Shown: positions 4,200-30,472 of the stretch, one piece after another
Layout: every line of letters begins with the position of its first letter
How positions within the stretch are numbered: position 1 is the first letter of the stretch
Origin: Chloroflexota bacterium
GTDB taxonomy: Bacteria > Chloroflexota > Dehalococcoidia > GIF9 > AB-539-J10
NCBI GenBank assembly: GCA_034190625.1
Contig: JAXHSX010000039.1
Coordinates: forward strand, 1-31,477
Reading direction: 5' to 3'
DNA length: 31,477 nucleotides
Position numbers and translations under genes: made by a program
Notes under the pieces: generated by a model
Database searches by the model: none
The model's input: the letters and a program-made list of their open reading frames with translations, nothing else
Told to the model about the DNA's origin: nothing

Positions 4200-4200
4200 A

Positions 4201-4650: not shown

Positions 4651-4705
4651 TTATCAGCCTCCGATACGTGCGCTATCTGATTCGACCATTCTGTATTCAT
4701 AGTCT

Positions 4706-5592: not shown

Positions 5593-6809
5593 ACTCTCCT
5601 AGCCTCTCCCTTCAATGGAGAGGGAGATTGGTACCTATCAGAGTACCATTTCATGCTGTATTTCCTTAGCTCTTCCCAGCTTATTGCTTGTTTTTCTTTT
5701 CTATTTCTATTCTCACTGTCAAGAATCATGATCCTATCCATACAGGCCATGCATGGATCGATTGCTGCAAATACGATAGGAATATCAGCAATATATCCGC
5801 CCTTGAGGCAATGAAGCACTGAGGTGATATTTGCCAGAGTAGGCGTCCTAACCTTGAGCCTTTCTGGATGATCAGTACCATTACTCCTGATATAGTGAAG
5901 CAATTCTCCTCTAGGGGCTTCAGTCTTGCTTACTACCTCGCCCGCGGGTACCTTGCGCGGTGCTTTGGTTCTGAATTCCCCCTCGGGCAACTCTTCAATT
6001 ATTTGGCGGCACATCTTGCAACTCTCAATTACTTCTAATACTCTGACAACGGTTCTTCCTAAGACATCGCCAAGGTCTGAGGTGACAACCTTGAAATCCA
6101 GATATGGATAGGCAGCGTACGGGTCATCTCTACGAACATCATATTCTACACCAGAGCCTCTGGCGGTAGGACCGCAAGCGCAAAGTTCTATCGCCTTTTC
6201 CTTGGGGAGCAATCCTACTCCTTCGGTTCTGCGCAGGAAAGTGACCTCTGTACTAGCTACCCCAAGATAATATTCAGTTCTTTCCTTGAGTTGCTGAATG
6301 CCCTTTAAGATTTGGGGTTTCATCTCATCAGTTATATTGCGTCTTACCCCGCCGATAGTATTCATGCCATAGTTAACCCTGTTGCCTGAGATAATCTCGA
6401 GTAGATCCATAACTATTTCTCGATCTCTCCAGCTATACATAAACAGAGTATCGAATCCCAGTTCGTGTCCCGCTACTCCGAGCCAAAGGAGATGGCTATG
6501 TATTCTTTCTAATTCGCAGACTAAGGTACGGATATAAAGTCCCCTTTTCGGAACTTCCAAACCGAGTAACTCCTCTACCCCTTGGCAAAAAGTCGTGGAG
6601 TGTATATGAGAGCATATTCCACAGATCCTCGCGGTAAGATAGATATCTTGGATATAATTTCCCAGTTCGCCAGCCTTCTCAATTCCGCGGTGGTTATATC
6701 CCAGACGTACACCTATATCTACTATTGTTTCCCCATCTACAGTGACTGTCAGATTAATGGGTTCTTTCAGTGCCGGATGTTGTGGACCGATAGGAATAGT
6801 GACAGCCAT
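5589..6809 (-). CDS. Group 4 (Mbh/4g-like) [NiFe] hydrogenase large subunit, module 1 (406 aa)
   Basis: IPIGPQHPALKEP, L1 RICGICSHIH, EAPRGE, L2 DPCMACMDR, followed by a cleavable C-terminal extension. Confidence 0.95.
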   Translation of the reverse strand: MAVTIPIGPQHPALKEPINLTVTVDGETIVDIGVRLGYNHRGIEKAGELGNYIQDIYLTARICGICSHIHSTTFCQGVEELLGLEVPKRGLYIRTLVCELERIHSHLLWLGVAGHELGFDTLFMYSWRDREIVMDLLEIISGNRVNYGMNTIGGVRRNITDEMKPQILKGIQQLKERTEYYLGVASTEVTFLRRTEGVGLLPKEKAIELCACGPTARGSGVEYDVRRDDPYAAYPYLDFKVVTSDLGDVLGRTVVRVLEVIESCKMCRQIIEELPEGEFRTKAPRKVPAGEVVSKTEAPRGELLHYIRSNGTDHPERLKVRTPTLANITSVLHCLKGGYIADIPIVFAAIDPCMACMDRIMILDSENRNRKEKQAISWEELRKYSMKWYSDRYQSPSPLKGEARRV

Positions 6810-6810
6810 T

Positions 6811-7275
6811 TCAGCCCTCCTTAACCTCGACCTTGTAATCCTTTCTCAAAGGATAGACCCCTTCCTCCCAATCGTCTGGGAGAATCAATCTCCTAGGATC
6901 GGGGTGGTCTTTCACCTTTAAACCTAGTAGATCCTGTATCTCTCGCTCATAAAGAATGGCGCCAGGCATGACCGGGGTAATAGTATCAAGTACAGGATTT
7001 GTCTTAGGGACAAAAGTGCTTAAGCTGATGGTTACTCCCTGGCAAAAGAAGTGATACAAGACCTCAATATCCTCTCCCACATCGACTGCAGTTATGGTGG
7101 TAATGTGGACCATGCCAAAACTTTGCTTGAGATAATCGATGACTTCCTTAACCTTGGGCAAGGGAATTCGAACAAATATTCTGCGTTCCCGAGGTATCCT
7201 AACTTTGAGGATTTGCTCGCCGAAAGTCTCTTTGAGTTTGTTCTCGACATCACTCGCCACTGACATGAATTTCAT
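6811..7275 (-). CDS. NuoC/MbhK-like subunit, module 1 (154 aa)
   Basis: HITTITAVD, YEREIQDLLG, HPDPRRL, YPLRK. Confidence 0.9.
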   Translation of the reverse strand: MKFMSVASDVENKLKETFGEQILKVRIPRERRIFVRIPLPKVKEVIDYLKQSFGMVHITTITAVDVGEDIEVLYHFFCQGVTISLSTFVPKTNPVLDTITPVMPGAILYEREIQDLLGLKVKDHPDPRRLILPDDWEEGVYPLRKDYKVEVKEG

Positions 7276-7735
7276 TTTTCCTTTTCAGTTCTTCCAAAAG
7301 TTGGTTATAACTGGGATCAAGATCTCCCAGAAGCTTTACTACCCCATGGATGATGGCATCGGGTCGGGGGGGGCAACCAGGTATATATACATTCACCGGG
7401 ATTGCCTTATCTATGCCACCTAGGACGTTATAGCAGCCCCAAAACACATCACCGGAGCAAGCGCAGGAACCAATAGCTATAACGAACTTCGGGTCAGGCA
7501 TCTGCTCGTATATTCTAACAGCTCTATTCTTCATTTGCCTGGTTATCGGGCCGCAGCACAGAAGGACATCAGCATGTCTCGGGGTTCCCTTAAGCAATAT
7601 ACCAAACCTTTCAATATCAAACCTCGGCATAAGGGCAGCAAGGGTTTCAATGTCACAACCATTGCAGCCACCGGTGTTTAGGTGACATACCCATGGTGAT
7701 TTCACTCTGGACCACTTGGTCAAACTTTCAAGCAT
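7250..7735 (-). CDS. Group 4 hydrogenase small subunit (NuoB/MbhJ-like), module 1 (161 aa)
   Basis: GGCNGCDIE (CxxC), TPRHADVL, IGSCACSG, PGCPPRP: four cluster Cys. Confidence 0.93.
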   Translation of the reverse strand: MLESLTKWSRVKSPWVCHLNTGGCNGCDIETLAALMPRFDIERFGILLKGTPRHADVLLCCGPITRQMKNRAVRIYEQMPDPKFVIAIGSCACSGDVFWGCYNVLGGIDKAIPVNVYIPGCPPRPDAIIHGVVKLLGDLDPSYNQLLEELKRKNEIHVSGE

Positions 7736-12972: not shown

Positions 12973-13431
12973 TTAACCTCGAATGGTTTCTTCCATGACC
13001 ATCCTAACCGCTTCAGGAATAACTCGCTCTACGTCGGGTGTGCATTTCTCACTAAACTTAGTAACGTCTTTTACTTCTATAGCGAATATGGTGATCTTTC
13101 GGGGCATTGGTAAGTTAAGTAGCTTGCCTAATTCTAGAGCAGTGACTAAGTTTATTTGATGGGGTGATGAAGGATGTTTAGCAAAGGAGAAATCTTGCGG
13201 TTCCATACAATATATCTGGCCTACTTTTCCTTCCTTAGTTTGGATGGCATCAATAATAATAACTTCGTCATAGCCTACGACATAATCTAAAAAGCTGAGG
13301 CCAGCTAAACTCGACTCAGCTACAGTAACTTGGGGGTTACTAAAGGTCTTGCTTATTTCTTGTACTACCCTAATACCTACAGCGTCGTCACAAAGAATGG
13401 GATTTCCCAGTCCTAGAATCAATGTTTTCAT
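12973..13431 (-). CDS. HyaD/HupD-type hydrogenase maturation protease (152 aa)
   Basis: LGLGNPILCDDAVG, IIIDAI, SPHQINL. Confidence 0.92.
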   Translation of the reverse strand: MKTLILGLGNPILCDDAVGIRVVQEISKTFSNPQVTVAESSLAGLSFLDYVVGYDEVIIIDAIQTKEGKVGQIYCMEPQDFSFAKHPSSPHQINLVTALELGKLLNLPMPRKITIFAIEVKDVTKFSEKCTPDVERVIPEAVRMVMEETIRG

Positions 13432-13467: not shown

Positions 13468-13695
13468 TTATGAGTGTAGCGAAAGATCGCATTGTTTAGG
13501 TAATGTAATAGCCCTAAACTTGAAATTCTTGCCTCTTGACTTTCCGCCAAGATCAAGCAATTGAGCCAAGGTTTTAGCCTCTCTCAAGCCTCGTGGTGGT
13601 TGGGTACAGCCATCGCAGCCTGTGATTAGAATGGAATTGTAAGGGGACAGGAAATCGAAAATTTCATCTAAAGGTTTTTGACTTGTTATTATCAC
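13468..13695 (-). pseudogene. metV: Truncated metV copy (75 aa; 5' third only)
   Basis: Near-identical to the first ~70 aa of the 20410..21057 product, then diverges after KQCD and stops. The C-terminal Fe-S/Zn domain is missing. Confidence 0.85.
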
Positions 13696-13708
13696 TGCCT
13701 AGTCTCCT
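13486..13708. repeat. Direct repeat copy A (223 bp)
   Basis: Aligns ungapped to 20848..21070 with 10 mismatches by manual count. Confidence 0.95.
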
Positions 13709-14858
13709 GGGAACAATCGCTTTCTATTCTTTCCTTAAACTGCTGAAGTTCTTTACGGAAAGTATCAGGATATCTTGGAGATACAGAACAGAAATGAAGT
13801 CTCTCTGCAAGGCCAATTTGGCTTAAGATTTTCTTCAAAGCTGTGGTTGACCTTTTAGCCTCCTTACTTCCTGTCTTCGATTTGCAATCTTCCTCAGGGC
13901 AGGCTGCTATCAATATGCCGTCTACGCTGTTCTGAAAAGCCTCTACGATATGCAGGGGATCAACTCTCGCAGCACAGGGTAAATCTATAACACGAACATT
14001 AGAATCAAATTCTTCACCAAGTGGGGGAAAAGTGGACCATTGACAACGAAATACCATAATTTTTGGTGTTTTCATCTCTGAGGATAGCTTAGATATTAAT
14101 GCTGATATGAGATCTTCTTCCCAGTGATCGAGATCTAAAGCGAAAGCGGGGCATAGGGTGACACATAAGCCGCAGCCACGGCACAATTCTAGGTCGAAGC
14201 TAGCCGCTCCGCTCTCTAGTTTGGCAGCATCGTAGGGACAATAGAATGCACAGTTACCACAAGCGATACATTTATTCCTATCTACTTTGACTTTCAGGGT
14301 ATGCCGCTTAAGCTTGATCATATCTTTGCCATAGCCAAGCTGTTCTAGCACAAGATTAAGTGCTATGACTCTGCGGCCGGTTATTGAGCTCCCCCTGTCA
14401 AATCGGCAGTAATCCTCATCACAGGCAAGGATGTTGATGCTTTTTATACCTAGGGGAATAATTTTCAATAATATCTCTGATGGGATACGACCAACACAGG
14501 GAACAGACAAGGGTATGAAGTTCGAAGTTCCGAAGAGCTTCCCCACATCTTCAAAATCCGGGGCACATCCTTTACACATAATAACTAATGAATCGGATTC
14601 ATATTCCTGCTTTGCCCTCTTTATGTATCTGAACAAGGAATCTATATCGTAGTAAATAACGTCGATAGCTCCAGCGGGGCAAGTGGAGTAGCAAATTGCG
14701 CAGGACTGACACTTCTCTATCTCCAGGAGCATTTTGCCTGTTTCAGAGTCTTTTTTTATTGCGTCAAAAGGACAAGCTGAGGCGCACATAGTACAGCTGC
14801 TACAGGATTCCTCGTTTATTCTAAGGGCAACTTTTTGTTTATTGTCTGATAGTTCCAA
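13692..14858 (-). CDS. Tandem [2x4Fe-4S ferredoxin + MvhD-like domain] x2 protein (388 aa)
   Basis: Four CxxCxxCxxxCP motifs in two pairs. Each pair is followed by an MvhD-like domain (MCKGC..VPCVGR..ACDEDYC; FRCQWS..LPCAARVDP..ACPEEDC). TTG start with AGGAG RBS. Confidence 0.85.
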   Translation of the reverse strand: MELSDNKQKVALRINEESCSSCTMCASACPFDAIKKDSETGKMLLEIEKCQSCAICYSTCPAGAIDVIYYDIDSLFRYIKRAKQEYESDSLVIMCKGCAPDFEDVGKLFGTSNFIPLSVPCVGRIPSEILLKIIPLGIKSINILACDEDYCRFDRGSSITGRRVIALNLVLEQLGYGKDMIKLKRHTLKVKVDRNKCIACGNCAFYCPYDAAKLESGAASFDLELCRGCGLCVTLCPAFALDLDHWEEDLISALISKLSSEMKTPKIMVFRCQWSTFPPLGEEFDSNVRVIDLPCAARVDPLHIVEAFQNSVDGILIAACPEEDCKSKTGSKEAKRSTTALKKILSQIGLAERLHFCSVSPRYPDTFRKELQQFKERIESDCSQETRQ

Positions 14859-14890
14859 TCAATCCTCTCCTTTTTAATTATTTTGGAGAA

Positions 14891-16738
14891 TCATAATGCT
14901 GCGTAGGTATGGGCTATAGTCTCTAATAGCTTATCTTTGCTAGCAATTGCTTCAGAAGGACAGGCAGCGATACATACACCACATCGCTTGCACTTAAGGT
15001 CGTCTATATGTGCTACTGACCCTTTCTCGGACTTTTCAAGTTGGATGGCGCTATAAGGACATAGTGCGATGCAAACCATACACCCGCTACATAGCTCTTG
15101 ATTTACTTCAATCTCCGGTATCTCGAACTGAAGCTCTAGTGCCACACATGCTTTACAACTCCTACATGGGCCACAGCAGAGACACCTTCGAGCCTCTTCT
15201 ACTGCTTCTTCTAGAGTGAATCCTTTCTCAAAGATTTCGAAGTTTAGCCTTTCTTCTACAGGAGCCCATACTAGTTCGGGTTGAGCTTTGTAGTCTATAG
15301 ATTTTGGGATAGCTGCACCTTCATATTCTCTTTCTCGTCCAACTTTAAGGTCTTCGCCCTTTAAGTAGCGGTCTATGGATTCTGCAGCTATCATCCCATC
15401 TCTCATAGCATCTGCGGCAAAACCTATCCGCTTCACATCACCCCCAATAAAAATTCCTTCTTTGCGATTACTCATGAGAGTAAACGGATCAACATCAAGC
15501 CTGCCTTTATCGTTTATCAAGTCTCCCTGCTGTAAGAATGCTCGCTCTGGGCCTTGCCCAATGGTGACCAGCAGCACATCGCCTTCAAGATATATTATAT
15601 CATTAAGGTCAAACTTTGGATTGAATCCGCTTTCATCAAAGACAGATGTACATCGGGGGCATTCTATTTTTCTGAATTGTCCATTCTCACCAATTATCTT
15701 GTTTATTCCACGAGAATAAGTTATCTTTATTCCTTCTTCGTTAGCGCCTTCTATTTCTTCTATATCAGCCGGAATTCCATCTTTAAAGCACTTATCTTGA
15801 CATTCAAGACATACGACGGAAATATCTCCACCAAGTCGTCGGGCGGTTCTTGCAACATCAAATGCTACATTACCACCTCCCACTACTATCACTCTTTTGC
15901 CCTGAAAGAGTCCAGGGGAAACATTCCCTCGATTCGCATCGTAGAGTAGATTCAATCCGAACATGACTCCCTCCATATCTGCCCCTTCTACCATTTCCCT
16001 TTCGAAGGTGAGTGGTCTGGGGGAAGGAGTACCGGTGGCAATGAATACGGCTTTGTAGCCTTCCGCTTTAAGGTCGTTCAGGGTTTTACCTCCATTGCCC
16101 ATTTTGACCCCATATTCAACCTTGACATTGGCAACTCTTACTAAGTTATTCATAGTAATGTCCATTACATCTCTGGGAAGGCGATAACGGGGAATATACC
16201 CGAGAGCACCTCCTAGCTGGGAATCTTTTTCCAGGATAGTTACGGAATAATCTTTTTTACTTAGCATGTAGGCACACATTAATCCACCAGGTCCTCCTCC
16301 GATCACAGCAATCTTTCCTTTGCCAGGGGAAGCAAATGGGGGTTTGGTCTCCAGATATGGAATATAGTAATCGGAGAGAAATCGTTTGAGCATTCTCCTT
16401 CTCACTGCTCCAGTGTGGTCTTTATAATTGCACTCTTTTTCACATAGTCCGCAGATATAACCACATACTGTGAATAGAGGATTCTTATCAAAAATTTCAT
16501 CACCTATCTTTATTATCTGACTGGAAGCCTCTTGGGTGTTCAGAGGGAGAAGTGAGATCATGGTATTGGTTCGCTGAATATCCTCTCCGATAGGACAAGC
16601 TATCTGGCAGGGAGGCAAGTATACCTTCCCGCTCATCTCATCAATCACTTCCTCGACCCGAGCCCGGTCTTTTTGAGAACTAATCTTTTCTTCCTTGACT
16701 TTCCCTGTTTTTTCCCTCTTACGAAAAATATTACGCAT
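14891..16738 (-). CDS. GltD/NfnB-like FAD-dependent oxidoreductase with a C-terminal ferredoxin (615 aa)
   Basis: PPCQIACP..CGYICGLCEKEC; IGGGPGG; VGGGNVAFDVAR; RRCLCCGPCRSCKAC; two C-terminal CxxCxxCxxxCP motifs. Confidence 0.88.
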   Translation of the reverse strand: MRNIFRKREKTGKVKEEKISSQKDRARVEEVIDEMSGKVYLPPCQIACPIGEDIQRTNTMISLLPLNTQEASSQIIKIGDEIFDKNPLFTVCGYICGLCEKECNYKDHTGAVRRRMLKRFLSDYYIPYLETKPPFASPGKGKIAVIGGGPGGLMCAYMLSKKDYSVTILEKDSQLGGALGYIPRYRLPRDVMDITMNNLVRVANVKVEYGVKMGNGGKTLNDLKAEGYKAVFIATGTPSPRPLTFEREMVEGADMEGVMFGLNLLYDANRGNVSPGLFQGKRVIVVGGGNVAFDVARTARRLGGDISVVCLECQDKCFKDGIPADIEEIEGANEEGIKITYSRGINKIIGENGQFRKIECPRCTSVFDESGFNPKFDLNDIIYLEGDVLLVTIGQGPERAFLQQGDLINDKGRLDVDPFTLMSNRKEGIFIGGDVKRIGFAADAMRDGMIAAESIDRYLKGEDLKVGREREYEGAAIPKSIDYKAQPELVWAPVEERLNFEIFEKGFTLEEAVEEARRCLCCGPCRSCKACVALELQFEIPEIEVNQELCSGCMVCIALCPYSAIQLEKSEKGSVAHIDDLKCKRCGVCIAACPSEAIASKDKLLETIAHTYAAL

Positions 16739-16769
16739 TATCTAGTCTCCACATTAGCTTATTCGGTCT

Positions 16770-18242
16770 TTAAAACTCACGAAGATTCCTGCTTAGCCTC
16801 CGAAGTTCATTTCCCTGGTAATCACGGATGAGTACCTCTAAAGGCATCTGTCCGGGTAGCGTGTGCGTGCCACAGGCCATGCAAGGATCATAGGCTCTGA
16901 ATGCCATCTCAACCATATTGAGAAGACCGTCAGAGACCTCGCCTTTGTGTATCAGTGACTTAGCTGCTTTCTCGACTGACATAGCAATTGGAGCCATATT
17001 GTTTGTCGTGGCCACAATTAAGTTGACCTTGGTAAGAATCCCTCGCTCATCGGTTTGATAGTGATGAAAAAGAGTCCCTCTTGGTGCTTCTACTACCCCG
17101 ATGCCCTCTCTGGGAGTTTCAGTTGGCAGATTTACAGTATCAGGAGAGGTAAGTTCTGGGTCATGAGAAAGCTCCACTACCCGTTCTGAAGCACAAAGCG
17201 CCTCAATGAGTCGAGCCCAGTGGAAAGCCAGGGTATTGTGAACCGGTTTTCCACCTAATGTTGCGTACATCTTTTCATAGGCTTCTTGGGCTAGCGGGGT
17301 GGCCATCCCATCGGATGCATTAAGTCGAGCTAATGGTGCTACCCGGTAAATGCCGCTATCTTCCCCGTCAGTAAACCCCTTCCAACCGACATTTTTTAGA
17401 TAGCAGAACTTCATATAACTCCAGGGCTCAACATGTTCCCTGACGTGATCCAGATATTCTTGGGGCCTGAACTTGGCAAACTCCTTACCATTGGGGTCAA
17501 CCACTCTAATCATGCCATCATAGAAGTTTACCTTATTGTTCTCATCTACCAGCCCCATATAATAAGTCCTGTGCTTAAAGACATCTCCAACGATAAGGTC
17601 GACGTAATCCTTATTTTTCAGTACAATGTCATCAAAAGCACTCAGGGCAAACTGGCAGAAATCCACGGCATATTTCCCTGCCTCTATAATCTCTTTCCTT
17701 TCCTCCTCGCTGATTGCTTTTGACACTCCTCCAGGTAGACCCATACTAGGATGGACAGGCTTGCCTCCGATTATTCTTAAAACATTCCTCAGCCTCTTCC
17801 TCATCTCTATTACTTTCCCGCCAGCTTCCAGCCCAACTTTGCCAATCACTCCCAGGATGTTTCTTTCTGCGGCGGGTGCCGTTGGGCCAACAATGAAATC
17901 GGGACCTCCGAGGAAGAAGAAATGCAATATATGGTCTTCAGCCGTGAAAGCATTGTACATCAATCTTCTTATTTTCTTCGCTGTCGAAGTTGGCTCAACC
18001 TTCCAAAGGTCATCCAGGGTTTTAGTCGACGCCATGTGGTGAGCGGTAGGACACACTCCACAAATCATGGTTGTTATTCTTGGCATCTCCTCTGCTGGCC
18101 TTCCTATACAAAATTCCTCGAAGCCTCGAAGCTCGGGGATTTGAAGGTAAGCCCTGTCAACGTCTCCGTCATCATTGAGAAAGATTTCTATCTTTCCATG
18201 TCCTTCCAGTCTGGTTATTGGGTCTATCGTTATTTTTTTCAT
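16770..18242 (-). CDS. mvhA: Group 3c [NiFe] hydrogenase large subunit (about 490 aa)
   Basis: IDPITRLEGHGKI, ELRGFE, L1 MICGVCPTAH, EAPRG, L2 DPCMACGTH plus extension. Start trimmed to ATG 18242 (AGGAGG RBS). Confidence 0.95.
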   Translation of the reverse strand: MKKITIDPITRLEGHGKIEIFLNDDGDVDRAYLQIPELRGFEEFCIGRPAEEMPRITTMICGVCPTAHHMASTKTLDDLWKVEPTSTAKKIRRLMYNAFTAEDHILHFFFLGGPDFIVGPTAPAAERNILGVIGKVGLEAGGKVIEMRKRLRNVLRIIGGKPVHPSMGLPGGVSKAISEEERKEIIEAGKYAVDFCQFALSAFDDIVLKNKDYVDLIVGDVFKHRTYYMGLVDENNKVNFYDGMIRVVDPNGKEFAKFRPQEYLDHVREHVEPWSYMKFCYLKNVGWKGFTDGEDSGIYRVAPLARLNASDGMATPLAQEAYEKMYATLGGKPVHNTLAFHWARLIEALCASERVVELSHDPELTSPDTVNLPTETPREGIGVVEAPRGTLFHHYQTDERGILTKVNLIVATTNNMAPIAMSVEKAAKSLIHKGEVSDGLLNMVEMAFRAYDPCMACGTHTLPGQMPLEVLIRDYQGNELRRLSRNLREF

Positions 18243-18243
18243 T

Positions 18244-19236
18244 CTATCCTCCTGTGTATTCCATCCTCTTTCTTGTAAGCAGGGAGGATGGCAAACTAAA
18301 TCTGTAGAATGTTCCCGCGGGGTCTGCGATTTGATCAATTAGTTTCTGGCTATCTTCCTCTGTCATTTTCTCTTCACCTTCAAGTCCTAATATAGAGGCG
18401 ATTGCTGAAAGCGCTCTTGCTCCTTGGTCAATAACACCATCTATAGGACCAAAACAACCCCTGCATGGCATGTTAGCCCTAATGCATGTTTCTCCGCATC
18501 CTGAACGAGTGGCTGGCCCAAGACAAATTAGCCCTTGCACCAGGAAGCATTTCTCAGGGTCGATTTTAATCTCCCAGGGTCTCTTTATCTCTGCCATTGA
18601 TAGCTTCTCTGGTTTTGTATCTGCTCTTGGGCAAGTATCGCATTGCGCTTTGTTAGGAGCAAGGACTGTCCCCTTATCTGGTAGTTGCCCTGTGAGTATG
18701 GCATTTATGGCATTCATTATTAAATCAGGCGGTGGTGGACATCCCGGAAGGTAATAATCCACAGGGATAGTTTGATTTAATGTCTTTACCGTGTTATATA
18801 ATTCGGGCAGGGTGAGTACACCAATTCCGATGTCTGTCTTCTCCTGTGGAACTGTTCCCTCTGGATTTTCGGTGGACGGGGTCTCCTTATACGCCGTCTG
18901 GAAGATTGTCTCCCTGGTACAGAAATTCCCTAGGCCAGGTATCCCTCCCAGATGGGCACAAGACCCAAAGGCAACTACAAGACCAGATTTTTCCCTAAGT
19001 AATTTTACCATCTCTTCTTGCTCCTCTGTCCGCACAGCACCGTTTATGAAGCTCACTGCGATTTCTCCATCGCTTAAAGCCTCAACATCCTTCCTTCTAA
19101 AATCCAACGCAACTGGCCATAAGACAATATCCACAGCGTCTGTCACTTTTAATATATCTTCATTAAGATCTACCACTGCCTCTTCACATCCACCACACGA
19201 AGCACACCAATAAAAAGCAACCTTTGGTTTAGCCAT
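18244..19236 (-). CDS. mvhG: Group 3c [NiFe] hydrogenase small subunit (about 330 aa)
   Basis: WCASCGGCE, GSCAHLGG, PGCPP, CDTC, CFLVQGLICLGP, CRGCFGP. Start trimmed to ATG 19236. Confidence 0.95.
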   Translation of the reverse strand: MAKPKVAFYWCASCGGCEEAVVDLNEDILKVTDAVDIVLWPVALDFRRKDVEALSDGEIAVSFINGAVRTEEQEEMVKLLREKSGLVVAFGSCAHLGGIPGLGNFCTRETIFQTAYKETPSTENPEGTVPQEKTDIGIGVLTLPELYNTVKTLNQTIPVDYYLPGCPPPPDLIMNAINAILTGQLPDKGTVLAPNKAQCDTCPRADTKPEKLSMAEIKRPWEIKIDPEKCFLVQGLICLGPATRSGCGETCIRANMPCRGCFGPIDGVIDQGARALSAIASILGLEGEEKMTEEDSQKLIDQIADPAGTFYRFSLPSSLLTRKRMEYTGG

Positions 19237-19295
19237 GTTCACTCTCCTTATTTAACCTTTTCATGTATTATAACTTCCATCTATTACTAAATTAT

Positions 19296-19715
19296 TTATT
19301 GTTGCTTTCTAAACGGACCTGGCCCAAGTTCCTTTACCGTTTTGGTGAAATCGGTAACCACCTCGGCAAACCTTGCTCCTTCAGAAGCGGAAACCCACTC
19401 CAGCCGAATTCTTTCACTCTCTATCCCAAATTGGCTCAACATTTTCTTGAGTAATGGGATACGTCGTGCTGCTTTATAATTACCTGCAATATAATGACAA
19501 TCGCCAGGATGGCAACCGGTAATGAGAACTCCATCAGCTCCCGCTTCAATAGCTTTGAGTATGAAAGTAGGATCAACCCTGCCACTGCACATCACCCTAA
19601 TTATTTTTATATTGGAGGGGTATTGGAATCGTGAGACACCAGCGAGGTCCGCGCCAGCATAAGAACACCAGTTACAACAAATTCCGACGATTTTTGGCTC
19701 AAATCCATTATCCAT
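19296..19715 (-). CDS. mvhD: MvhD/FlpD [2Fe-2S] subunit (about 139 aa)
   Basis: [38 protein letters not shown]. Start trimmed to 19715; 19718 is an alternative. Confidence 0.95.
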
Positions 19716-19762
19716 CATAATTCCTTTCAATTTTAAATTATCCCACATTTTATTATTAGCAG

Positions 19763-20128
19763 CTAGATGTCCAGAGATTTCGTACGCTTTACACATGGAC
19801 TCTCCCGCACTGTAGTCTTCAGTCGCTCTTTGTCGCTGTTACTAACTGCATTACCTTCAAGGGCGGTTTGAATAAGCTGTCGGAAACAACTATAGGATTT
19901 CCCTATACGTTCATCGTCAATTGAATATAGCACCCAGAGGCCGTCACGCTTTGCTTTTAAAAAACCTGTATTGCATAGGGCGGTCAATCCACGAGAAGCG
20001 CGAGTATGGGGTATCATCATCGCTTGAGCTATTTCGCAGACACTGCATTCTCGTTCCAGAACCAAGTTTGCAATCCTGAGCCTCGTTTCATCTGAGAGGG
20101 CTTTAAATAAATTCAATGCACTTTGCAT
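19763..20128 (-). CDS. ArsR/SmtB-family transcriptional regulator (about 121 aa)
   Basis: [30 protein letters not shown]; ATG 20128 with AAGGCGG RBS. Confidence 0.9.
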
Positions 20129-20140
20129 GTGAACCGCCTT

Positions 20141-20180
20141 TAAACTGTATGCATATATGAGCAACCATGCATACAGTTTA
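20141..20180. promoter_or_regulatory. Perfect 14-bp inverted repeat, candidate ArsR operator
   Basis: TAAACTGTATGCAT-N12-ATGCATACAGTTTA, overlapping the -10 region and leader of arsR. Confidence 0.75.
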
Positions 20181-20409: not shown

Positions 20410-21057
20410 TCATTCTTTGACTATTCCGGGTCTAGCCACCTGCGCAAAATTCCTGGGAGGCTGAATTTCCTCTAAGACGGACAATCTGCCTAGTTTCTCC
20501 AGGCGTTTAATAATCAGATCCCAGGCACAGTCTTTTTCAGGATCGATCTCGCACTTACCGTATTGTGAGCCACCACAGGGGCCGTTAAGCAGAGATTTGG
20601 CGCATCTGGCAATAGGGCAAATACCGCCGGTTAAAGCTAACATACAATCTCCGCAGGCAGCGCATCTTTCCTCGAGAGTGCTATCCTCTCTGATCTCCGA
20701 CCCGATAAAGAGAGTGTTTTGAGCGGGAAAGGCAGGTAGATCGGGTAGGACTTGAGATATAGTTTGTACGCCCAGGCCACAAGCTAACGATAAGATAGCT
20801 TCCATACCCTCTGTTTGAGGCTGAAGTGAAGTAATGGTCAGGTAAGAATCGCATTGTTTAGGCAATGTAATAGCCCTAAACTTGAAATTCTTGCCTCTTA
20901 ACTTTCCGCCAAGATCAAGCAATTGAGCCAAGGTTTTAGCCTCCCTCAAGCCTCGTGGTGGCTGGGTACAGCCATCGCAGCCTGCGATTATGATGGAATT
21001 GTAAGGGGATAGGAAATCCAAAATTTCATCTAAAGGTTTTTGACTTGTTATTATCAC
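20410..21057 (-). CDS. metV: MetV-like methylenetetrahydrofolate reductase Fe-S/Zn subunit (215 aa)
   Basis: GCDGC, KQCD, LACGLGVQ, CAACGDCML..GGICPIARCAKSLLNGPCGG..GKCE..DCAW. Confidence 0.88.
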   Translation of the reverse strand: MIITSQKPLDEILDFLSPYNSIIIAGCDGCTQPPRGLREAKTLAQLLDLGGKLRGKNFKFRAITLPKQCDSYLTITSLQPQTEGMEAILSLACGLGVQTISQVLPDLPAFPAQNTLFIGSEIREDSTLEERCAACGDCMLALTGGICPIARCAKSLLNGPCGGSQYGKCEIDPEKDCAWDLIIKRLEKLGRLSVLEEIQPPRNFAQVARPGIVKE

Positions 21058-21070
21058 TGCCTGGTCTCCT
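20848..21070. repeat. Direct repeat copy B (223 bp)
   Basis: About 95% identical to 13486..13708; covers the RBS and 5' end of metV. Confidence 0.95.
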
Positions 21071-21094: not shown

Positions 21095-22774
21095 CTACGC
21101 GATGACTGCCTCCAGTTGCGCCATAATCTGCTGATTTGTGAAATGATTCATGGTGATGGCTCCAGAGGGACAGGCAGCGCCACAAGTGCCGCAACCCTTG
21201 CATTGAGCTACAGTGACCTGAGCTACTCTTTCTCCATTTTGGGGTATAAGTTGCATGGCTCCAAATGGACAAAGGGAAGCACATGTGCCACATCCTGAGC
21301 ACATATCCGCATTAACCGAGGAAGTTATGGCCTCAGGCCATACATAGCCCATTTTCAATGGCCCCGCTGCCTTTGCAGCGGCAGCATAAGCTTGAGAAAT
21401 TCCTTCGACCGTATCTGTAGGCCAGCGTGCTGAACCACAAAGGTAAATACCGTCCATGGCAAATTCCACCGGGCGAAGCTTCAGATGTGCTTCCAGTAAG
21501 AAACCAAACTCATCCAATGAGCACTTAAGCATCTGGGAAATTTCCTGGTTATCCTCATAGGGGATAAGCGGTGTAGTGAGAACAAGCGTATCACAGGCAA
21601 GCTCTATTTCCTCTCCTCGTAGCACATGGTACATATTTATCTTCTCGGCTTTACCTTCTCCGATGACTTGAGGAGGTCTGTCCAAGCTATATCTGATGAA
21701 TCTGACTCCTAGCTCCATAGATCTTCGATAATAATTCTCGAAATCTTCACCATACGCCATAATGTCTCGATGCAATATCCAGACCTTTGACTGAGGGTTT
21801 GCTTCTTTAATAAGGGAAGCGTTTTTAAGTGCAGTCATACAGCAAATTCTGCTGCAATAAGTTCTCTCCGGAACTCGAGCTCCTACACAATTGATCATGA
21901 CGATGTTTTGCCCTACAGATTCCCCCTTCTTCAACCGCTCCTCTAACTCGAGTTGTGTGATGACATTGGGCATTTCACCATAGCCATATTGACCGACAGG
22001 TTTTAACTTATCAGCACCGATTGCCACTATGATAGTACCTACATTGAATCCGTTCTCTTTTCCAGCTTGGTCCACAACGATATCGAAATTACCTATGAAT
22101 CCGCCGACTTCCTTCACTCTAGTTGAAAGATGAGTCTCGATCTTGGGATGACTGTCAATTTTCTTAATAAGAGGATCGATTATCTTTGCTGCTTCTACAT
22201 TACTGGTGAAAAGTTTATACAGACTGCGGAGAGTTCCCCCGAGTTCTCCTTCTCTTTCTACTAGGTGAACTTGGAAACCCTGGTTGGCTAGAGTTAGAGC
22301 TGCCTCCATTCCTACAATTCCGCCACCTATTACTAAGGTAGAAGGATTGACTGGAATCTCAATTTCCTCTAGCGGCTGCAGCAATCTGGCCTTGGCTGCT
22401 CCCATCCTAATGAGGTCTTTAGCTTTTTCAGTAGCCTTCACCGTATCATCCATATGAACCCAGGAGCACTGGTCTCTTATGTTAACAAACTCGAAAAGAT
22501 ATTTATTCAGGCCGACGGACTCACATGCAGACCTGAAAAGTGGCTCATGTGTTCTAGGTGTGCAAGAAGCTACTATGACGCGGTTAAGATTATGCTCCTG
22601 AATGCCCTTCTTAATCGCTGATATTCCCTCTTCAGAGCAAGTATAGATATTGCGCTCAGCGTGCACAACGTGAGGCAACCCCTTGGCATATTCTACTAGT
22701 TCAGAAACATCCACATATGCTGCTATATTCCTGCCACAATGGCATATGAAGATGCCAATACGCGGCTCTTCCAT
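21095..22774 (-). CDS. hdrA: HdrA-like subunit (QmoB-like layout, no MvhD fusion, no inserted ferredoxin; 559 aa)
   Basis: FICHCG, ASCTPRTHE, NIRDQCSWVH, GGGIVG, LELEE, CSRICCMTALK, C-terminal 2x[4Fe-4S]. Confidence 0.9.
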   Translation of the reverse strand: MEEPRIGIFICHCGRNIAAYVDVSELVEYAKGLPHVVHAERNIYTCSEEGISAIKKGIQEHNLNRVIVASCTPRTHEPLFRSACESVGLNKYLFEFVNIRDQCSWVHMDDTVKATEKAKDLIRMGAAKARLLQPLEEIEIPVNPSTLVIGGGIVGMEAALTLANQGFQVHLVEREGELGGTLRSLYKLFTSNVEAAKIIDPLIKKIDSHPKIETHLSTRVKEVGGFIGNFDIVVDQAGKENGFNVGTIIVAIGADKLKPVGQYGYGEMPNVITQLELEERLKKGESVGQNIVMINCVGARVPERTYCSRICCMTALKNASLIKEANPQSKVWILHRDIMAYGEDFENYYRRSMELGVRFIRYSLDRPPQVIGEGKAEKINMYHVLRGEEIELACDTLVLTTPLIPYEDNQEISQMLKCSLDEFGFLLEAHLKLRPVEFAMDGIYLCGSARWPTDTVEGISQAYAAAAKAAGPLKMGYVWPEAITSSVNADMCSGCGTCASLCPFGAMQLIPQNGERVAQVTVAQCKGCGTCGAACPSGAITMNHFTNQQIMAQLEAVIA

Positions 22775-22775
22775 T

Positions 22776-25505
22776 TTAACTACCTCCTGTTAGCGCCTCA
22801 GCAGCTCTACCTGCTGCTCCTGAAGCTTGGGTTACTGAGTCCGGGATGTCCCGCGGACTGTGGACATAGCCGCAAGCAAAGATGCCAGGCTTCGTAGTAT
22901 CTAAGGGTTGTGACAAGTTATCTGGGATCTTCACAAAACCATTTTCATCTAACTCTATACCTAGTATTTTTGCTAGCTCCTTATTGATTTGAGGAATCAT
23001 CGCTTGAGCAAGAACCACTATTTCTGCCTCAAATTTCTTTATTTCACTAGTAGTGGTATCTTCGTACCAGATAATAGGGTTATCATTCTCGGGGTTAACT
23101 TCGATCCTGCCGGGGCGACCTCTGATATAAGCCACATTGTAGTCTTTTTTAGCTCTAGCGATATACTCCTGGAACCTTTTGCCTACAGCTCTCATATCCA
23201 TATAGAAGACAGTAGACTTCGTCCCGGGTTCATGCTCGTATGCCATCATTGCCTCTTTGGTAGCATGCATACAACAGACGCTAGAACAATATGGTTGATA
23301 CCTGAAATCGCGGGAGCCGACGCATTGAATGAAAGCTATATTATGAGGGATTTTCCCGTCAGATGGCCTATCAAGCGATCCCACAGTAGGTCCAGATGCT
23401 GCGGTTAGTCTCTCATATTCTATGGCTGTAATAACGTTCTTTATCTTTCCATAGCCATACTCTTCAAGCCCTGAGATGTCGTAGAAATCCAAGCCAGTAG
23501 CGACAATAATCGCACCTACATTGATTTTAATATCCTTACCTTTCATTGTGTATACTATGGCATTCGCATCGCATCGTCGTTCACACTCATGGCATTCGAT
23601 GCACCCTTCTATTTGTCCTGCAAGGCAACGTGAAGCTTCCTCTACAGCTTCTTCCAGAGAATATCCCGGAGCTGCTTCACGGAAATCCTTTACCCTCTGT
23701 GCGACAGGTTCCTCTCGCATCTTTATTCTCTTTGCAGCAGGAAAGCGTTTCTTACGGTCATCCATTTCTTTCTCAGAGAATTTCTCCGGTTCTTTCTCTT
23801 CCACCGCAACCTCGATCGATTCCCCCTTAAGGTATCTGTCGATTGAACGAGCAGCTGTTTTGCCTGCTGCTACGGCATTTATTACGAAAGCGGGGCCAGT
23901 GACTACATCACCGCCGGAAAACACTCCCTCGATGTTTGTTGCCCCAGTCTTGGTATCAATTTCTACCGTGCCCTTCTTAGAAAGCGAGACTTCCAGTTCT
24001 TTGACGAACTCTGTCTCAGTAGCCTGTCCTAGGGCAGCAATAACCGTATCCATTGGAATAGTGAACTCGGAATCTTTGATAGGGACAGGTCGAGGACGAC
24101 CGCTAGCATCTGGTTCCCCTAATTGCATTTTTATACACTCGATCTTGGCAAGCTTTTCATTCTGGGACAAGAAGCGTGTTGGGTTAGTCAGGAATTCGAT
24201 TTTTATTCCCTCTTCCTCTGCTGCTGCTATTTCTTCCTCAGCCGCTGGCATCTCAGTACGGGAACGACGATAGATAATAGTTGCATCTTCTGCTCCAAGG
24301 CGTCTCGCCGTGCGGGCACAATCAATAGCTGTATTACCTCCACCGATTACTGCTACTTTCTTTCCTATCTCTACCTTTGTCCCCAGGTTTACATCACGGA
24401 GGAATCTTACTCCCTCTATAACTCCCGGAGTCTCTTCGCCCTCTACTCCAAGCTTCATGCCACCGTGTGCCCCAATACCGATAAAAATGGCATCGTAATC
24501 TTTTCTCAATTCCTGTAGGGTAATGTCTTTGCCAACCTGGATGCCTGTTTTTATCTCTACACCAAGCTTTTGGATATAATTTATTTCCTTACGCAAAATT
24601 TGCTTGGGCAGGCGATATTCGGGAATGCCAACACGAAGCATGCCCCCGGGTTCAGGGAGGGCTTCGAAGACAGTCACATTATGACCCTTTAAAGCAAGAT
24701 CATTGGCAGCAGTAAGGCCAGCGGGACCAGCACCCACGATTACTACTTTTTTATCCGTTTTTACAATAGTTGGGACTTCAAGTTCCACGATGTTCCACTG
24801 CTCCGCGGGAACTCTCTTGAGGTCACGAATAGCCATAGATTCATCGATTTGACCCCGGTTACAAGCTTGCTCACAAGGGGCGTAGCAAACCCGGCCGACG
24901 GAGGCAGGGAAAGGGTTTGTTTCCCTTATGAGTTTATAAGCCTCTTTAAACTGACCTTCTGCAATGAGTTTAATATATCCAGGCACATTAGTATGAGCAG
25001 GACAAGCGTCCATACAAGCTGCTTTGCAAGGACGGTCTTCCCTTTTGTCGATTACGCATTTCTTGGGAACAGCCTGAGGGTAGAGCATAAAGATGGCTTT
25101 TCTTTTTCCTAGTCCTCGATTGAATTCATCCGGTATTACGACAGGGCATCCTTCCGTGCAAAGACCGCAGCCAGTGCATTTATCCCAATCAACGTATGTT
25201 GCCTTCTTTTCAACCTTAACCTGGAAATTTCCAACCTCTCCCGATACCTCTTTGAGCTCAGAATAGGTCAGAAGTTCAATATTAGAATGCTGGCTTGCCT
25301 CTATCATTTTAGGGGCCAGAATACACATAGCGCAATCATTAGTGGGAAAGGTTTTGTCCAGCTGTGACATTCTTCCCCCGATGCTGGGCGTCTTTTCTAC
25401 TAAATAGACTTTAAAGCCCATATTAGCCAAATCAAGAGAGGCTTGAATCCCAGCTATTCCACCACCAACCACTAGTATTGAGTTATGTCCATTTTCTCCG
25501 TTCAT
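22776..25505 (-). CDS. hdrA: HdrL-like protein (HdrA FAD core with inserted ferredoxin and GltD-like module, lacking the HdrA N- and C-terminal domains; 909 aa)
   Basis: Begins VVGGGIAG; LDKTFPTNDC; CTGCGLC..CP, then the GltD module (GAGPAG, GGGNTA, YRRS), then CIECHECERRC; CSSVCCMHATK; ends GRAAEAL. Confidence 0.9.
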   Translation of the reverse strand: MNGENGHNSILVVGGGIAGIQASLDLANMGFKVYLVEKTPSIGGRMSQLDKTFPTNDCAMCILAPKMIEASQHSNIELLTYSELKEVSGEVGNFQVKVEKKATYVDWDKCTGCGLCTEGCPVVIPDEFNRGLGKRKAIFMLYPQAVPKKCVIDKREDRPCKAACMDACPAHTNVPGYIKLIAEGQFKEAYKLIRETNPFPASVGRVCYAPCEQACNRGQIDESMAIRDLKRVPAEQWNIVELEVPTIVKTDKKVVIVGAGPAGLTAANDLALKGHNVTVFEALPEPGGMLRVGIPEYRLPKQILRKEINYIQKLGVEIKTGIQVGKDITLQELRKDYDAIFIGIGAHGGMKLGVEGEETPGVIEGVRFLRDVNLGTKVEIGKKVAVIGGGNTAIDCARTARRLGAEDATIIYRRSRTEMPAAEEEIAAAEEEGIKIEFLTNPTRFLSQNEKLAKIECIKMQLGEPDASGRPRPVPIKDSEFTIPMDTVIAALGQATETEFVKELEVSLSKKGTVEIDTKTGATNIEGVFSGGDVVTGPAFVINAVAAGKTAARSIDRYLKGESIEVAVEEKEPEKFSEKEMDDRKKRFPAAKRIKMREEPVAQRVKDFREAAPGYSLEEAVEEASRCLAGQIEGCIECHECERRCDANAIVYTMKGKDIKINVGAIIVATGLDFYDISGLEEYGYGKIKNVITAIEYERLTAASGPTVGSLDRPSDGKIPHNIAFIQCVGSRDFRYQPYCSSVCCMHATKEAMMAYEHEPGTKSTVFYMDMRAVGKRFQEYIARAKKDYNVAYIRGRPGRIEVNPENDNPIIWYEDTTTSEIKKFEAEIVVLAQAMIPQINKELAKILGIELDENGFVKIPDNLSQPLDTTKPGIFACGYVHSPRDIPDSVTQASGAAGRAAEALTGGS

Positions 25506-25507
25506 TA

Positions 25508-26668
25508 TTAGTCTCCCATAGCGTTTGCTACCAAACTTACCAAATCCATGACCTCAATCTCTGGCATTGACCGCTTTAGGTCTCCTTTATCCACCATGGC
25601 ACACCTGAAATGAGTCTGACATTTAGGACAAGAAGTTATAAGTGTCTCTGCTCCTGTTGCCTTGGCCTCAGATAGTCTTTGCATCCTTATCATATTGGAA
25701 CAGGAGTCACAATTTGTCCAAGCGCTGGTACCACAGCAAATAGATTCTTCCTTAATATATGGCATTTCCACTAATTCTATGCCAGGAATAGATTCGAGTA
25801 CTTTTCGCGGCGCGTCATAAACACCCAAGTGCCTCCCCAACCTACAGGGATCCTGATAGGTCACCTTCTTTTCGATCTCTTTAAATTTCAGCCCGTCTTT
25901 CTCTATCTTCTCCGCTAGAAATTCGGAAATATGCTGTACTTCACAACCCAAATCAACGTAATTGGGATAGTCTAGCTTGAATGTTCGATAACCCTCGGGG
26001 CAGGAAAAAACGATTTTCTTGATCCCTGCTTCCTTGATTTGCGCCGCATTATATTCGGCTAGTTTCTTAAATGTTACTATGTCACCGGTCCAGAGTGCAT
26101 CATGTCCGCAGCATTTTTCGTTTGGAAGCAATTTAGGCTCTATACCCAAGAGGTTTAAAATTTTTAGGCTTGCCTTGGTGATATCAAGAGCACTAAATTC
26201 AATATCCTCAAAGATAGGTTCGAAATATGGAGCACATCCGACCCAGAAAAGAACGTCGCTTGTATCAGAAATGCGATATAGAGCAGAACCATCAATCCCT
26301 TTTAGCCATTCCAACCTACTTTGTTTAATTTCAGGGCTTGCCATAAGTCGTGCCAAAGATTGTAATTGTCCTGCGTGAGCACAGATTCCATGCTGTCCAT
26401 TATTTTGGGCAATACCTCTCGCTTTCTGAATAAATACAGGAAAATCAACGTCACTGGGGCACCTGAGCGAGCATGTGTAGCAAGTCAGACAGGAAAAAAG
26501 TTTCTGATTGAAGGTTAACTCATCCTCGAATCCCAAAAGAGCGTTTTCAATCATCCTCCGAGGAGAAAAGGAAGGATCATATTTGGCGACGGGACATACA
26601 CTGGTACACTTGCCACACTCCAGGCAATAGTGGGTATTAGTTTCTTGAATAATATCCTCTAAATTCAC
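25508..26668 (-). CDS. HdrD-like Fe-S oxidoreductase (HdrC-like ferredoxin + two CCG domains; 386 aa)
   Basis: CLECGKCTSVCP, CLTCYTCSLRCP, EKCCGH, DPCRLGRH, ICCGT, SCPKC; GTGA coupled to mvhD. Confidence 0.88.
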   Translation of the reverse strand: MNLEDIIQETNTHYCLECGKCTSVCPVAKYDPSFSPRRMIENALLGFEDELTFNQKLFSCLTCYTCSLRCPSDVDFPVFIQKARGIAQNNGQHGICAHAGQLQSLARLMASPEIKQSRLEWLKGIDGSALYRISDTSDVLFWVGCAPYFEPIFEDIEFSALDITKASLKILNLLGIEPKLLPNEKCCGHDALWTGDIVTFKKLAEYNAAQIKEAGIKKIVFSCPEGYRTFKLDYPNYVDLGCEVQHISEFLAEKIEKDGLKFKEIEKKVTYQDPCRLGRHLGVYDAPRKVLESIPGIELVEMPYIKEESICCGTSAWTNCDSCSNMIRMQRLSEAKATGAETLITSCPKCQTHFRCAMVDKGDLKRSMPEIEVMDLVSLVANAMGD

Positions 26669-30454: not shown

Positions 30455-30472
30455 TTTTAACTCTCCATTATA

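Follow-up and report, generated by a model that had tools for sequence, protein, structure and literature searches.

A group 3c-type [NiFe] hydrogenase operon joined to a GltD/NfnL-like flavoprotein in Dehalococcoidia: a likely NAD(P)-linked enzyme

Which partner receives the electrons of the hydrogenase MvhDGA in Dehalococcoidia? Bacterial group 3c hydrogenase genes are routinely read as Hdr-linked and electron-bifurcating. The question is raised by a contig of a Chloroflexota bacterium (class Dehalococcoidia; assembly GCA_034190625.1, contig JAXHSX010000039.1), whose 31,477 nucleotides, analysed as a whole, are called the window here. On its minus strand, mvhD, mvhG and mvhA are followed by a gene for a 615-residue iron–sulfur flavoprotein (P0001) and by a gene for a 388-residue protein with tandem ferredoxin and MvhD-like parts (P0002, the Fd-MvhD protein). 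The gaps before and after the flavoprotein gene are 31 and 32 nucleotides, and the gene order given in the original prediction made from the letters of this DNA is confirmed. With moderate confidence, we propose that MvhA, MvhG, MvhD and the 615-residue flavoprotein form a soluble, non-bifurcating and reversible [NiFe] hydrogenase linked to nicotinamide adenine dinucleotide or its phosphate (NAD(P)); the complex, its electron path, its cofactor and its direction are predictions. An H2:NAD(P)+ function is the simplest reading because the flavoprotein gene is linked to mvh in three gene orders, its relatives are fused to MvhD, and its C-terminal ferredoxin is of the HdrA type. The original proposal of an H2:NAD(P)+ oxidoreductase is thus supported as to the partnership and as to a likely link to NAD(P), with the activity itself a prediction. 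A ferredoxin-dependent, bifurcating role gained no specific support.

Pfam divides the flavoprotein into an N-terminal Fe-S domain of the GltD/DPD kind, a flavoprotein fold for two dinucleotides and a 2x[4Fe-4S] ferredoxin at the C-terminus. The matches to residues 28-466 are NfnA of the T. sibiricus NfnABC complex (9n5u, 6.7e-54) and StnC (8oh5_C), and further NfnA of C. saccharolyticus and NfnL of P. furiosus (5jca_L) and T. maritima. The N-terminal 'RCLxC' segment of T. maritima NfnB has its counterpart in residues 491-535, so that the first cysteine pair for the GltD clusters is contributed from behind the flavin domain, an arrangement shared with StnC and NfnA. NfnA and StnC are longer (950-1180 residues, against 615 here), and the alignments stop after the ferredoxin part. 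Residues 531-602 match the C-terminal ferredoxin of HdrA (9sfi_A 569-632, 3.7e-16; 5odc_A 569-633), which outranks every other ferredoxin of the PDB as a match to this region. The protein possesses in this region the HdrA-type C-terminal 2x[4Fe-4S] ferredoxin on which MvhD would be expected to dock. An AlphaFold (AF2) model from 20 orthologues, with a predicted local distance difference test (pLDDT) of 74 and a predicted template modelling score (pTM) of 0.73, has NfnA, StnC, NfnL, DPD and GltD as Foldseek matches. Within the window, residues 43-532 align at 33% identity with HdrL 295-767, a stretch made up of the GltD insert and the CxxCxxC 'half ferredoxin', and residues 544-601 align with the C-terminal ferredoxin of HdrL at 1045-1102 (31% identity). 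HdrL 1-294 and 768-1044 have no counterpart: neither the N-terminal [4Fe-4S] domain of HdrA nor its thioredoxin-reductase-like domain for flavin adenine dinucleotide (FAD) is present. The description of the protein as the GltD insert, half-ferredoxin and C-terminal ferredoxin of HdrL, lacking the HdrA FAD domain, agrees with this alignment.

Conservation was followed in an alignment of 20 orthologues with 52-80% identity. Invariant are the FAD motif VIGGGPGG, the dinucleotide motif GGGNVAFD of the GxGxxA type and twenty cysteines in total, including residues 44, 48, 92, 96, 99, 103, 519, 522, 525, 528 and 531. In the C-terminal ferredoxin, seven cysteines are invariant and the eighth (Cys593) is nearly invariant. 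The FAD GxGxxG motif, the GxGxxA motif and the cysteines for two [4Fe-4S] clusters that are expected of an NfnL/GltD small subunit are all found; the Tyr-Arg-Arg (YRR) site is not. Where the 2'-phosphate of NADPH would be held, members of the family read 'CLEC', in which Leu311-Glu312 is invariant, and carry an insertion of five residues; NfnL, NfnA, the HdrL of the window and a paralogue on contig C31 of the same genome keep YRR there. With an invariant Leu-Glu in place of the NADPH-binding YRR, the cofactor would more likely be NAD(H) than NADP(H). Beside this altered site, residues 310-363 of the NAD(P)-binding domain (window about 15650-15810) include several cysteines: Cys360-x2-Cys363 (CPxC) is invariant, Cys310 is near-invariant and Cys313 is often present. 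Cys310, Cys360 and Cys363 may mark an additional site for a metal or for redox chemistry.

Assignment to several known families was considered and rejected. The flavoprotein is not a member of HdrA/HdrL, as the HdrA core is absent, nor of NfnSL, as NfnS and YRR are missing, nor is it a Bfu NfnA, as there is no HydA/NuoG part. The cassette is also not a group 3b or 3d hydrogenase, as it contains no such diaphorase gene; neither HoxFU (NuoF/E/G-like) nor HyhBG (AsrAB-like) genes were found in it. A PyrK-like NfnS partner gene, with a [2Fe-2S] cluster and a second FAD, is found neither in the cassette nor among the conserved neighbours, and the window has no NuoF-like gene.

The hydrogenase itself is a standard group 3c-type trio, judging from the motifs of MvhA and from the matches of MvhA, MvhG and MvhD to methanogen chains. 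MvhA carries both nickel-binding motifs, CGVCPTAHH near the N-terminus and DPCMACGTH near the C-terminus, and the latter is followed by a 30-residue tail of the kind cleaved by the maturation protease HycI. Its best solved matches are MvhA 5odc_F (2.6e-114) and, nearly equal, the NiFe-Bfu HydL 7t2r_D (6.6e-112); HoxH is matched at 3e-96, and the group 3b sulfhydrogenase only at about 1e-25. MvhG matches MvhG 5odc_E over the full length (4.4e-72). For MvhD, the methanogen chains 8rvu_F and 5odc_D score about 1e-54 (best 2e-54), and all four cysteines shared by every compared FlpD domain are present. Of the features that mark group 3c, the operon has both nickel motifs, an MvhG-type small subunit and a separate MvhD (FlpD) subunit.

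The linkage of flavoprotein and hydrogenase was followed through the relatives. The named homologues belong to Chloroflexota. With a threshold of at least 51% identity over nearly full length, flavoprotein orthologues were found in 12 of 41 close relatives, in 30 of 401 class-sampled genomes and in 6 of 401 phylum-sampled genomes, all six of the same class. A contig search with the flavoprotein alone as query returned only a 28%-identical gammaproteobacterial paralogue. Synteny was judged in 32 genomic loci (G numbers denote genomes, L numbers loci), which were mapped with the window proteins, and in 80 metagenome loci obtained from a family-alignment scan, with mvh counted as adjoining when it lay within 2.5 kb. 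The original prediction depended on the gene pair being conserved beside mvh, and this is what we observe: mvhA, mvhG or mvhD lies no more than 2.5 kb from the flavoprotein gene in 27/32 genomic loci, and mvh adjoins it in 49/80 metagenome loci. One further genomic locus is cut by a contig end, and 17/80 metagenome loci are too short to judge. The linkage occurs in three gene orders, which are mvhDGA-gltDFd as in the window, mvhGA-gltDFd-hycI-mvhD, and gltDFd-mvhDGA, where gltDFd stands for the flavoprotein gene. A self-contained operon of the second order is seen in L030 (mvhGA-gltDFd-hycI-mvhD-FdMvhD-metV-hypF-hypD-hypE). In four genomes (G011, G012, G028, G752) the flavoprotein gene stands apart from mvh, and all four carry mvhDGA-hycI elsewhere. 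It adjoins hypF in G011, and several of the 14 metagenome loci without mvh likewise have a hypF-sized open reading frame directly downstream. At many flavoprotein loci (L033, L039, L041, L043, L044) no hdr gene lies within 8 kb, and a confinement of the flavoprotein to Hdr-containing loci was rejected on this ground. We conclude that the Mvh-flavoprotein pairing is widespread in sediment Dehalococcoidia and is built from known modules.

Fusions suggest physical contact between the flavoprotein and MvhD modules. One orthologue, 73% identical to the window protein (P0104), has a C-terminal FlpD domain, and FlpD-fused genes with 67-71% identity are found in L069, L084 and L086. A Nitrospiraceae protein with 44% identity (P0126) is also FlpD-fused, and the genome under study itself encodes a 706-residue GltD-ferredoxin-FlpD paralogue. 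Other variants of the family were seen as well. An N-terminal response-regulator receiver domain is found in one orthologue (P0045, 737 residues) and a C-terminal one in another (P0123, 724 residues); orthologues of the receiver-domain type are linked to L056, L059, L065, L077, L079, L085 and L091. Between HdrL and mvhDGA-hycI, L065, L077 and L079 have an orthologue whose N-terminus bears a long extension; it is probably the receiver-domain form. In L021:5768-12694 and L022:5168-12094 (G035 and G036) the flavoprotein gene is found between mvhDGA and a divergent [NiFe] pair with 40% and 33% identity to MvhA and MvhG. L086:395-6242 contains two flavoprotein genes, of which one follows mvhA and is split over two frames at about 1503, and the other is FlpD-fused and followed by metV. 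A 595-residue GltD-ferredoxin protein with 40% identity (P0127/P0288, WP_066060091.1) comes from Candidatus Desulfofervidus auxilii, which uses hydrogen and is a partner of methane-oxidising archaea.

The features of the window on which the argument draws are the following.

12973-13431, minus strand: hycI-type maturation endopeptidase (Pfam HycI, 3.5e-16), predicted to act on the C-terminal tail of MvhA
13486-13708, minus strand: remnant of the metV 5' end, about 70 codons, one copy of a 223-nucleotide direct repeat
13692-14858, minus strand: 388-residue protein (ferredoxin-FlpD)x2, P0002; Pfam finds two FlpD stretches and two Fer4 pairs
14891-16738, minus strand: 615-residue GltD/NfnL-like FAD/NAD(P)H iron–sulfur flavoprotein, P0001 (Pfam Fer4_20, Pyr_redox_2)
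16770-18242, minus strand: mvhA, group 3c-type [NiFe] hydrogenase large subunit, ATG start, assigned by motifs and structure matches
18244-19242, minus strand: mvhG, [NiFe] hydrogenase small subunit (Oxidored_q6; MvhG 5odc_E)
19296-19796, minus strand: mvhD, [2Fe-2S] adaptor subunit (Pfam FlpD, 2.9e-57), true start likely the Met at 19715
19763-20164, minus strand: arsR-family regulator heading the mvh cassette (Pfam HTH_5)
20410-21057, minus strand: full-length MetV-like protein (DUF5981, 7.8e-36), between the Hdr block and arsR
21095-31477, minus strand: block of HdrBC-like, HdrL, MvhD, HdrBC, HdrA-GltD and HdrA' proteins, assigned with Pfam; possible alternative, canonical-type partner of the Mvh module

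Read along the minus strand, the window starts with an HdrBC-like gene, the 1122-residue HdrL, an mvhD, a second HdrBC-like gene, a 909-residue HdrA with GltD insert and a 559-residue HdrA-like protein. Then come metV, arsR, mvhD, mvhG, mvhA and the genes of the 615- and 388-residue proteins, and finally the 223-nucleotide metV remnant, hycI, a NUDIX gene and a complex-I-like group 4 hydrogenase cluster. Genes in the region are separated by 1-53 nucleotides, with 1 nucleotide between mvhG and mvhA. The arsR-mvhDGA order recurs in metagenome locus L052, and hycI orthologues occur within mvh/gltDFd operons of relatives. GC content is even over the window, with no sign of an artefact. A scan of the window for promoters and terminators returned sites no more numerous than in shuffled sequence and is uninformative on operon limits.

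The original prediction had also listed the 388-residue Fd-MvhD protein after the flavoprotein. Orthologues of it are found in only about 8 of 112 loci (L019, L024, L030, L051, L071-L073, L089), so the protein lies outside the conserved core and is an accessory in a minority of loci. Its ferredoxin parts match the C-terminal ferredoxin of HdrA and its FlpD parts match MvhD, with the four cysteines invariant among the compared FlpD domains kept in both copies. By its sequence, it looks like two MvhD/HdrA-ferredoxin joints in series, which would make it an accessory electron wire. Wherever the flank is readable (L030, L051, L071, L072, L089), metV is the next gene after the Fd-MvhD gene, and the full-length MetV at 20410-21057 is likely the partner of the Fd-MvhD protein. 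In the window, the start of the intact metV (20848-21070) and the truncated copy after the Fd-MvhD gene (13486-13708) form the 223-nucleotide direct repeat D1, which is 96% identical and corresponds to the metV 5' end. The remnant reading frame (13486-13695, 70 codons) has 94% amino-acid identity to MetV residues 1-70 by tblastn. Since the Fd-MvhD gene is followed by a whole metV in the relatives L030 and L051, the cassette of the window is rearranged, perhaps through recombination between two metV copies.

No metF adjoins any of these hydrogenase loci. On gene order alone, a link of the hydrogenase to methylene-tetrahydrofolate reduction is possible. Two other loci of the genome bear on this subject. 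Contig C31 (= L050:8039-11734, minus strand) carries an operon of the 706-residue GltD-ferredoxin-FlpD fusion, which keeps YRR, with metV and metF; it may encode a methylene-tetrahydrofolate reductase that is linked to NAD(P)H and has a connector of the MvhD type. On contig C19 (about 3212-7473), a 1032-residue frame that is NuoF-like (Complex1_51K) and GltD-like lies beside a second metF, as another NAD(P)H module of a different kind.

How exclusive is the pairing in this organism? Among the 41 relatives, MvhA occurs in 12/12 genomes with the flavoprotein compared with 16/29 without it; no statistics were drawn from this pattern because the relatives are not independent samples. G029, G036 and G039 each hold two Mvh operons, one of hdr-mvhDGA-hycI type after hdrBC-hdrA and one of gltDFd-mvhDGA type. 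In MvhA trees (a quick IQ-TREE run, and FastTree rooted on a 40%-identical paralogue), the hdr-linked copies fall into one clade together with a few flavoprotein-linked ones, two other clades are almost wholly flavoprotein-linked, and the paired copies of G029, G036 and G039 fall into different clades. MvhA of the window belongs to one of the two flavoprotein-linked clades, with G012 (89%), L052 (87%) and L051 (84%) as nearest relatives.

Several observations weigh against the proposed enzyme or against its exclusiveness. The tree loci were mostly picked for their flavoprotein gene, so that the purity of the clades is biased. In G024, G009 and G007, MvhA is 84-90% identical to that of the window and no flavoprotein orthologue was found, which means that the flavoprotein partner is dispensable. 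We also compared the operon (16770-19796) with L047, L048, L131-L136 and the mvhGA-gltDFd-hycI-mvhD loci. MvhD of the window is 66-77% identical to MvhD of operons with mvhD-mvhG-mvhA order, most of which are hdr-linked, and only 29-67% identical to MvhD of other flavoprotein-type operons. MvhG (71-87%) and MvhA (72-84%) are most like those of the mvhGA-gltDFd-hycI-mvhD operons, and the mvh operon of the window thus looks like a mosaic. The genome assembly is 71% complete, and the single mvhA found in it has the Hdr block just upstream, with metV and arsR in between, and the flavoprotein gene downstream. Relatives G028, G036, G029, G039 and G011 have hdr-linked mvhDGA-hycI without the flavoprotein gene between: in G028, mvhDGA-hycI comes immediately after the hdr genes, and G011 has its hdrA genes a few kb upstream of mvhDGA-hycI and separated from it by a GltD-like gene. 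The choice of NAD over NADP rests on two residues. Finally, two genes for [FeFe] hydrogenase catalytic domains and further NuoF-like genes are found elsewhere in the genome (contigs C14, C58, C5, C95). HydABC-type hydrogenases are probably also present, and an H2-NAD link by an Mvh enzyme is therefore not required.

The original prediction had placed the flavoprotein 'instead of HdrABC'. With the Hdr block directly upstream, one mvhA found and hdr-mvhDGA-hycI operons in relatives, this wording is too strong for the window. Given the position of the sole mvhA found, the mosaic operon and the hdr-mvhDGA-hycI operons of relatives, the Mvh module of the window may serve both Hdr complexes and flavoprotein.

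In the enzyme that we propose, H2 would be split at the NiFe site of MvhA, and the electrons would pass through the clusters of MvhG to the [2Fe-2S] cluster of MvhD. MvhD would dock on the C-terminal ferredoxin domain of the flavoprotein, from where the CxxCxxC region and two GltD-type [4Fe-4S] clusters would lead to FAD and to the reduction of NAD(P)+. The Fd-MvhD tandem protein and MetV would form an optional side branch. The first half of such a path is known from the solved Mvh-Hdr complex, in which electrons run from MvhAG via MvhD and HdrA's C-terminal ferredoxin to FAD (PMC9012536). The NfnL-like module of NfnABC serves simply as an NADPH port, and its FAD is not at the branch point and feeds a cluster chain (PMC12018979). 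A reversible, non-bifurcating enzyme is expected because the operon has neither a bifurcating flavin of the HdrA kind nor an NfnS-like second branch.

Other explanations of the locus have to be weighed against this. MvhAGD could work only with the upstream Hdr complexes, in H2-driven bifurcation to an unknown disulfide and ferredoxin, with the 615-residue protein as an independent NAD(P)H:ferredoxin-type oxidoreductase or as input module of Fd-MvhD/MetV. The Hdr block directly upstream of the one mvhA found fits this explanation, as do the hdr-mvhDGA-hycI operons of the five relatives named above, the closeness of the window MvhD to that of hdr operons and the close MvhA relatives without flavoprotein; the paralogous GltD-Fd-FlpD fusion moreover sits in a metV-metF context without hydrogenase. 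Yet the flavoprotein is linked to mvh in three orders and at many loci without nearby hdr genes, every checked genome with the flavoprotein has Mvh, and genomes with two Mvh operons dedicate one copy to it. Its ferredoxin tail is of the MvhD-receiving type and its orthologues include fusions to MvhD, so that we regard sole service to Hdr as unlikely. We also give only a small chance to a multi-port hub of MvhAGD, flavoprotein, (Fd-MvhD)x2 and MetV, with MetF acting in trans, that would couple NADH, H2 and methylene-tetrahydrofolate by bifurcation or confurcation, for example in 2 NADH + CH2-THF -> CH3-THF + H2 (THF, tetrahydrofolate). For Acetothermia and Moorella, the literature has a comparable proposal that concerns HdrA-MvhD-MetVF and MvhAG (PMC9586279, PMC5736913), and the Fd-MvhD gene or an FlpD-fused flavoprotein gene is followed by metV in L030, L051, L069, L071, L072, L084, L086 and L089; the metV remnant of the window and the GltD-Fd-FlpD, metV and metF operon of the same genome point the same way. 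The missing metF neighbours argue against such a hub, and most loci, among them all those of gltDFd-mvhDGA order, lack the accessory genes. In addition, metV after the Fd-MvhD gene is truncated in the window, the operon has no bifurcating flavin of the HdrA type, and in the closest solved relatives the FAD of the GltD type acts simply as an NAD(P)H port (PMC12018979).

A further alternative, which we consider very improbable, is that the flavoprotein passes the electrons of H2 to another acceptor, such as polysulfide or sulfur as in SudA, or a small-molecule disulfide, and that its dinucleotide site is structural or regulatory. The missing NADPH-type YRR, the invariant CPxC pair with nearby cysteines in the NAD(P) domain and the presence of SudA-like proteins in the same family (PMC5736913) could be taken in its favour. 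The GxGxxA dinucleotide and FAD motifs are invariant across the family, however, and tblastn of window genes and Pfam on L017 and L030 revealed no genes for sulfur handling in the conserved operons. Beyond these alternatives, it is conceivable but doubtful that one Mvh head plugs through interchangeable MvhD/HdrA-type-ferredoxin joints into the NAD flavoprotein, into an (Fd-MvhD)x2-MetV wire to methylene-tetrahydrofolate reductase and into the upstream HdrL/HdrA. If true, a switchable and possibly bifurcating assembly would couple H2 and NADH with ferredoxin and with the folate branch of the Wood-Ljungdahl pathway.

Returning to the NAD(P)-linked hydrogenase as the preferred reading, its consequences reach beyond this contig. 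If a large share of the group 3c hydrogenases of sediment and subseafloor Dehalococcoidia is wired to an NAD-type flavoprotein, models of H2 turnover and energy conservation for these abundant organisms need adjusting, as such enzymes would equilibrate H2 with NAD(H) and not make reduced ferredoxin. The pair of MvhD and HdrA C-terminal ferredoxin would be a reusable plug-and-socket joint, which bears on the evolution and the engineering of electron-transfer complexes. A limited literature search found no published description or test of Mvh with a free GltD-ferredoxin partner. The hydrogenases of Chloroflexi have been surveyed, and group 3c is reported there beside HdrABC and Etf, with no mention of a flavoprotein partner in the passages searched (bioRxiv 10.1101/2021.08.23.457424). 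For archaeal HdrA, a survey covers the inserted GltD module and the adjoining mvhADG and not the free GltD-ferredoxin partner (PMC12054007). FAD/NAD-binding subunits were noted in a proteome paper for 'Mvh1' of Syntrophobacter (Sfum_3535-37; PMC5947623), which may be related to the Mvh-flavoprotein system.

The closest known system on the side of the hydrogenase is MvhADG/VhuADG-HdrABC of hydrogenotrophic methanogens (5ODC, 9SW2, 9SFI). MvhA, MvhG and MvhD are full-length homologues (1e-114, 1e-72 and 1e-54), and the flavoprotein shares with HdrA the kind of C-terminal ferredoxin domain that receives the electrons of MvhD in HdrA. In contrast to HdrA, it lacks the N-terminal cluster and the bifurcating FAD domains, and the cassette lacks HdrBC. 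Since a GltD/NfnL-type NAD(P)H-FAD module replaces the HdrA core, bifurcation is not expected. HdrL is known from Desulfobacterium autotrophicum (PMC2702500) and as 'type III HdrA' (PMC12054007), and the HdrL of the window aligns with the flavoprotein in GltD insert, CxxCxxC segment and C-terminal ferredoxin; the flavoprotein differs by the loss of the whole HdrA core and by Leu-Glu with the five-residue insertion where HdrL has YRR.

On the side of the flavoprotein, NfnL/NfnB and NfnA/StnC (4YLF, 5JCA, 9N5U, 9BOV, 8OH5) are the best matches in sequence and fold, with the same FAD and dinucleotide motifs and two [4Fe-4S] clusters, and StnC and NfnA share the 'RCLxCG' segment after the flavin domain followed by a ferredoxin-like extension. 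Unlike NfnSL, NfnABC and StnABC, the cassette has no NfnS (PyrK-like), no HydA/NuoG-like domains and no HydBC-like subunits, and its Fe-S chain would reach the [NiFe] site via MvhD. With group 3d HoxEFUYH (5XF9) and group 3b SHI (9NEZ), the predicted enzyme would share the reversible H2:NAD(P)+ reaction and the nature of a cytoplasmic group 3 enzyme. The diaphorases are unrelated, as Hox uses a NuoF/NuoE-type FMN (flavin mononucleotide) module and SHI uses AsrB-like subunits, neither of which is found in the cassette, and the large subunit described here is closer to MvhA of methanogens than to HoxH (3e-96) or to that of SHI (1e-25).

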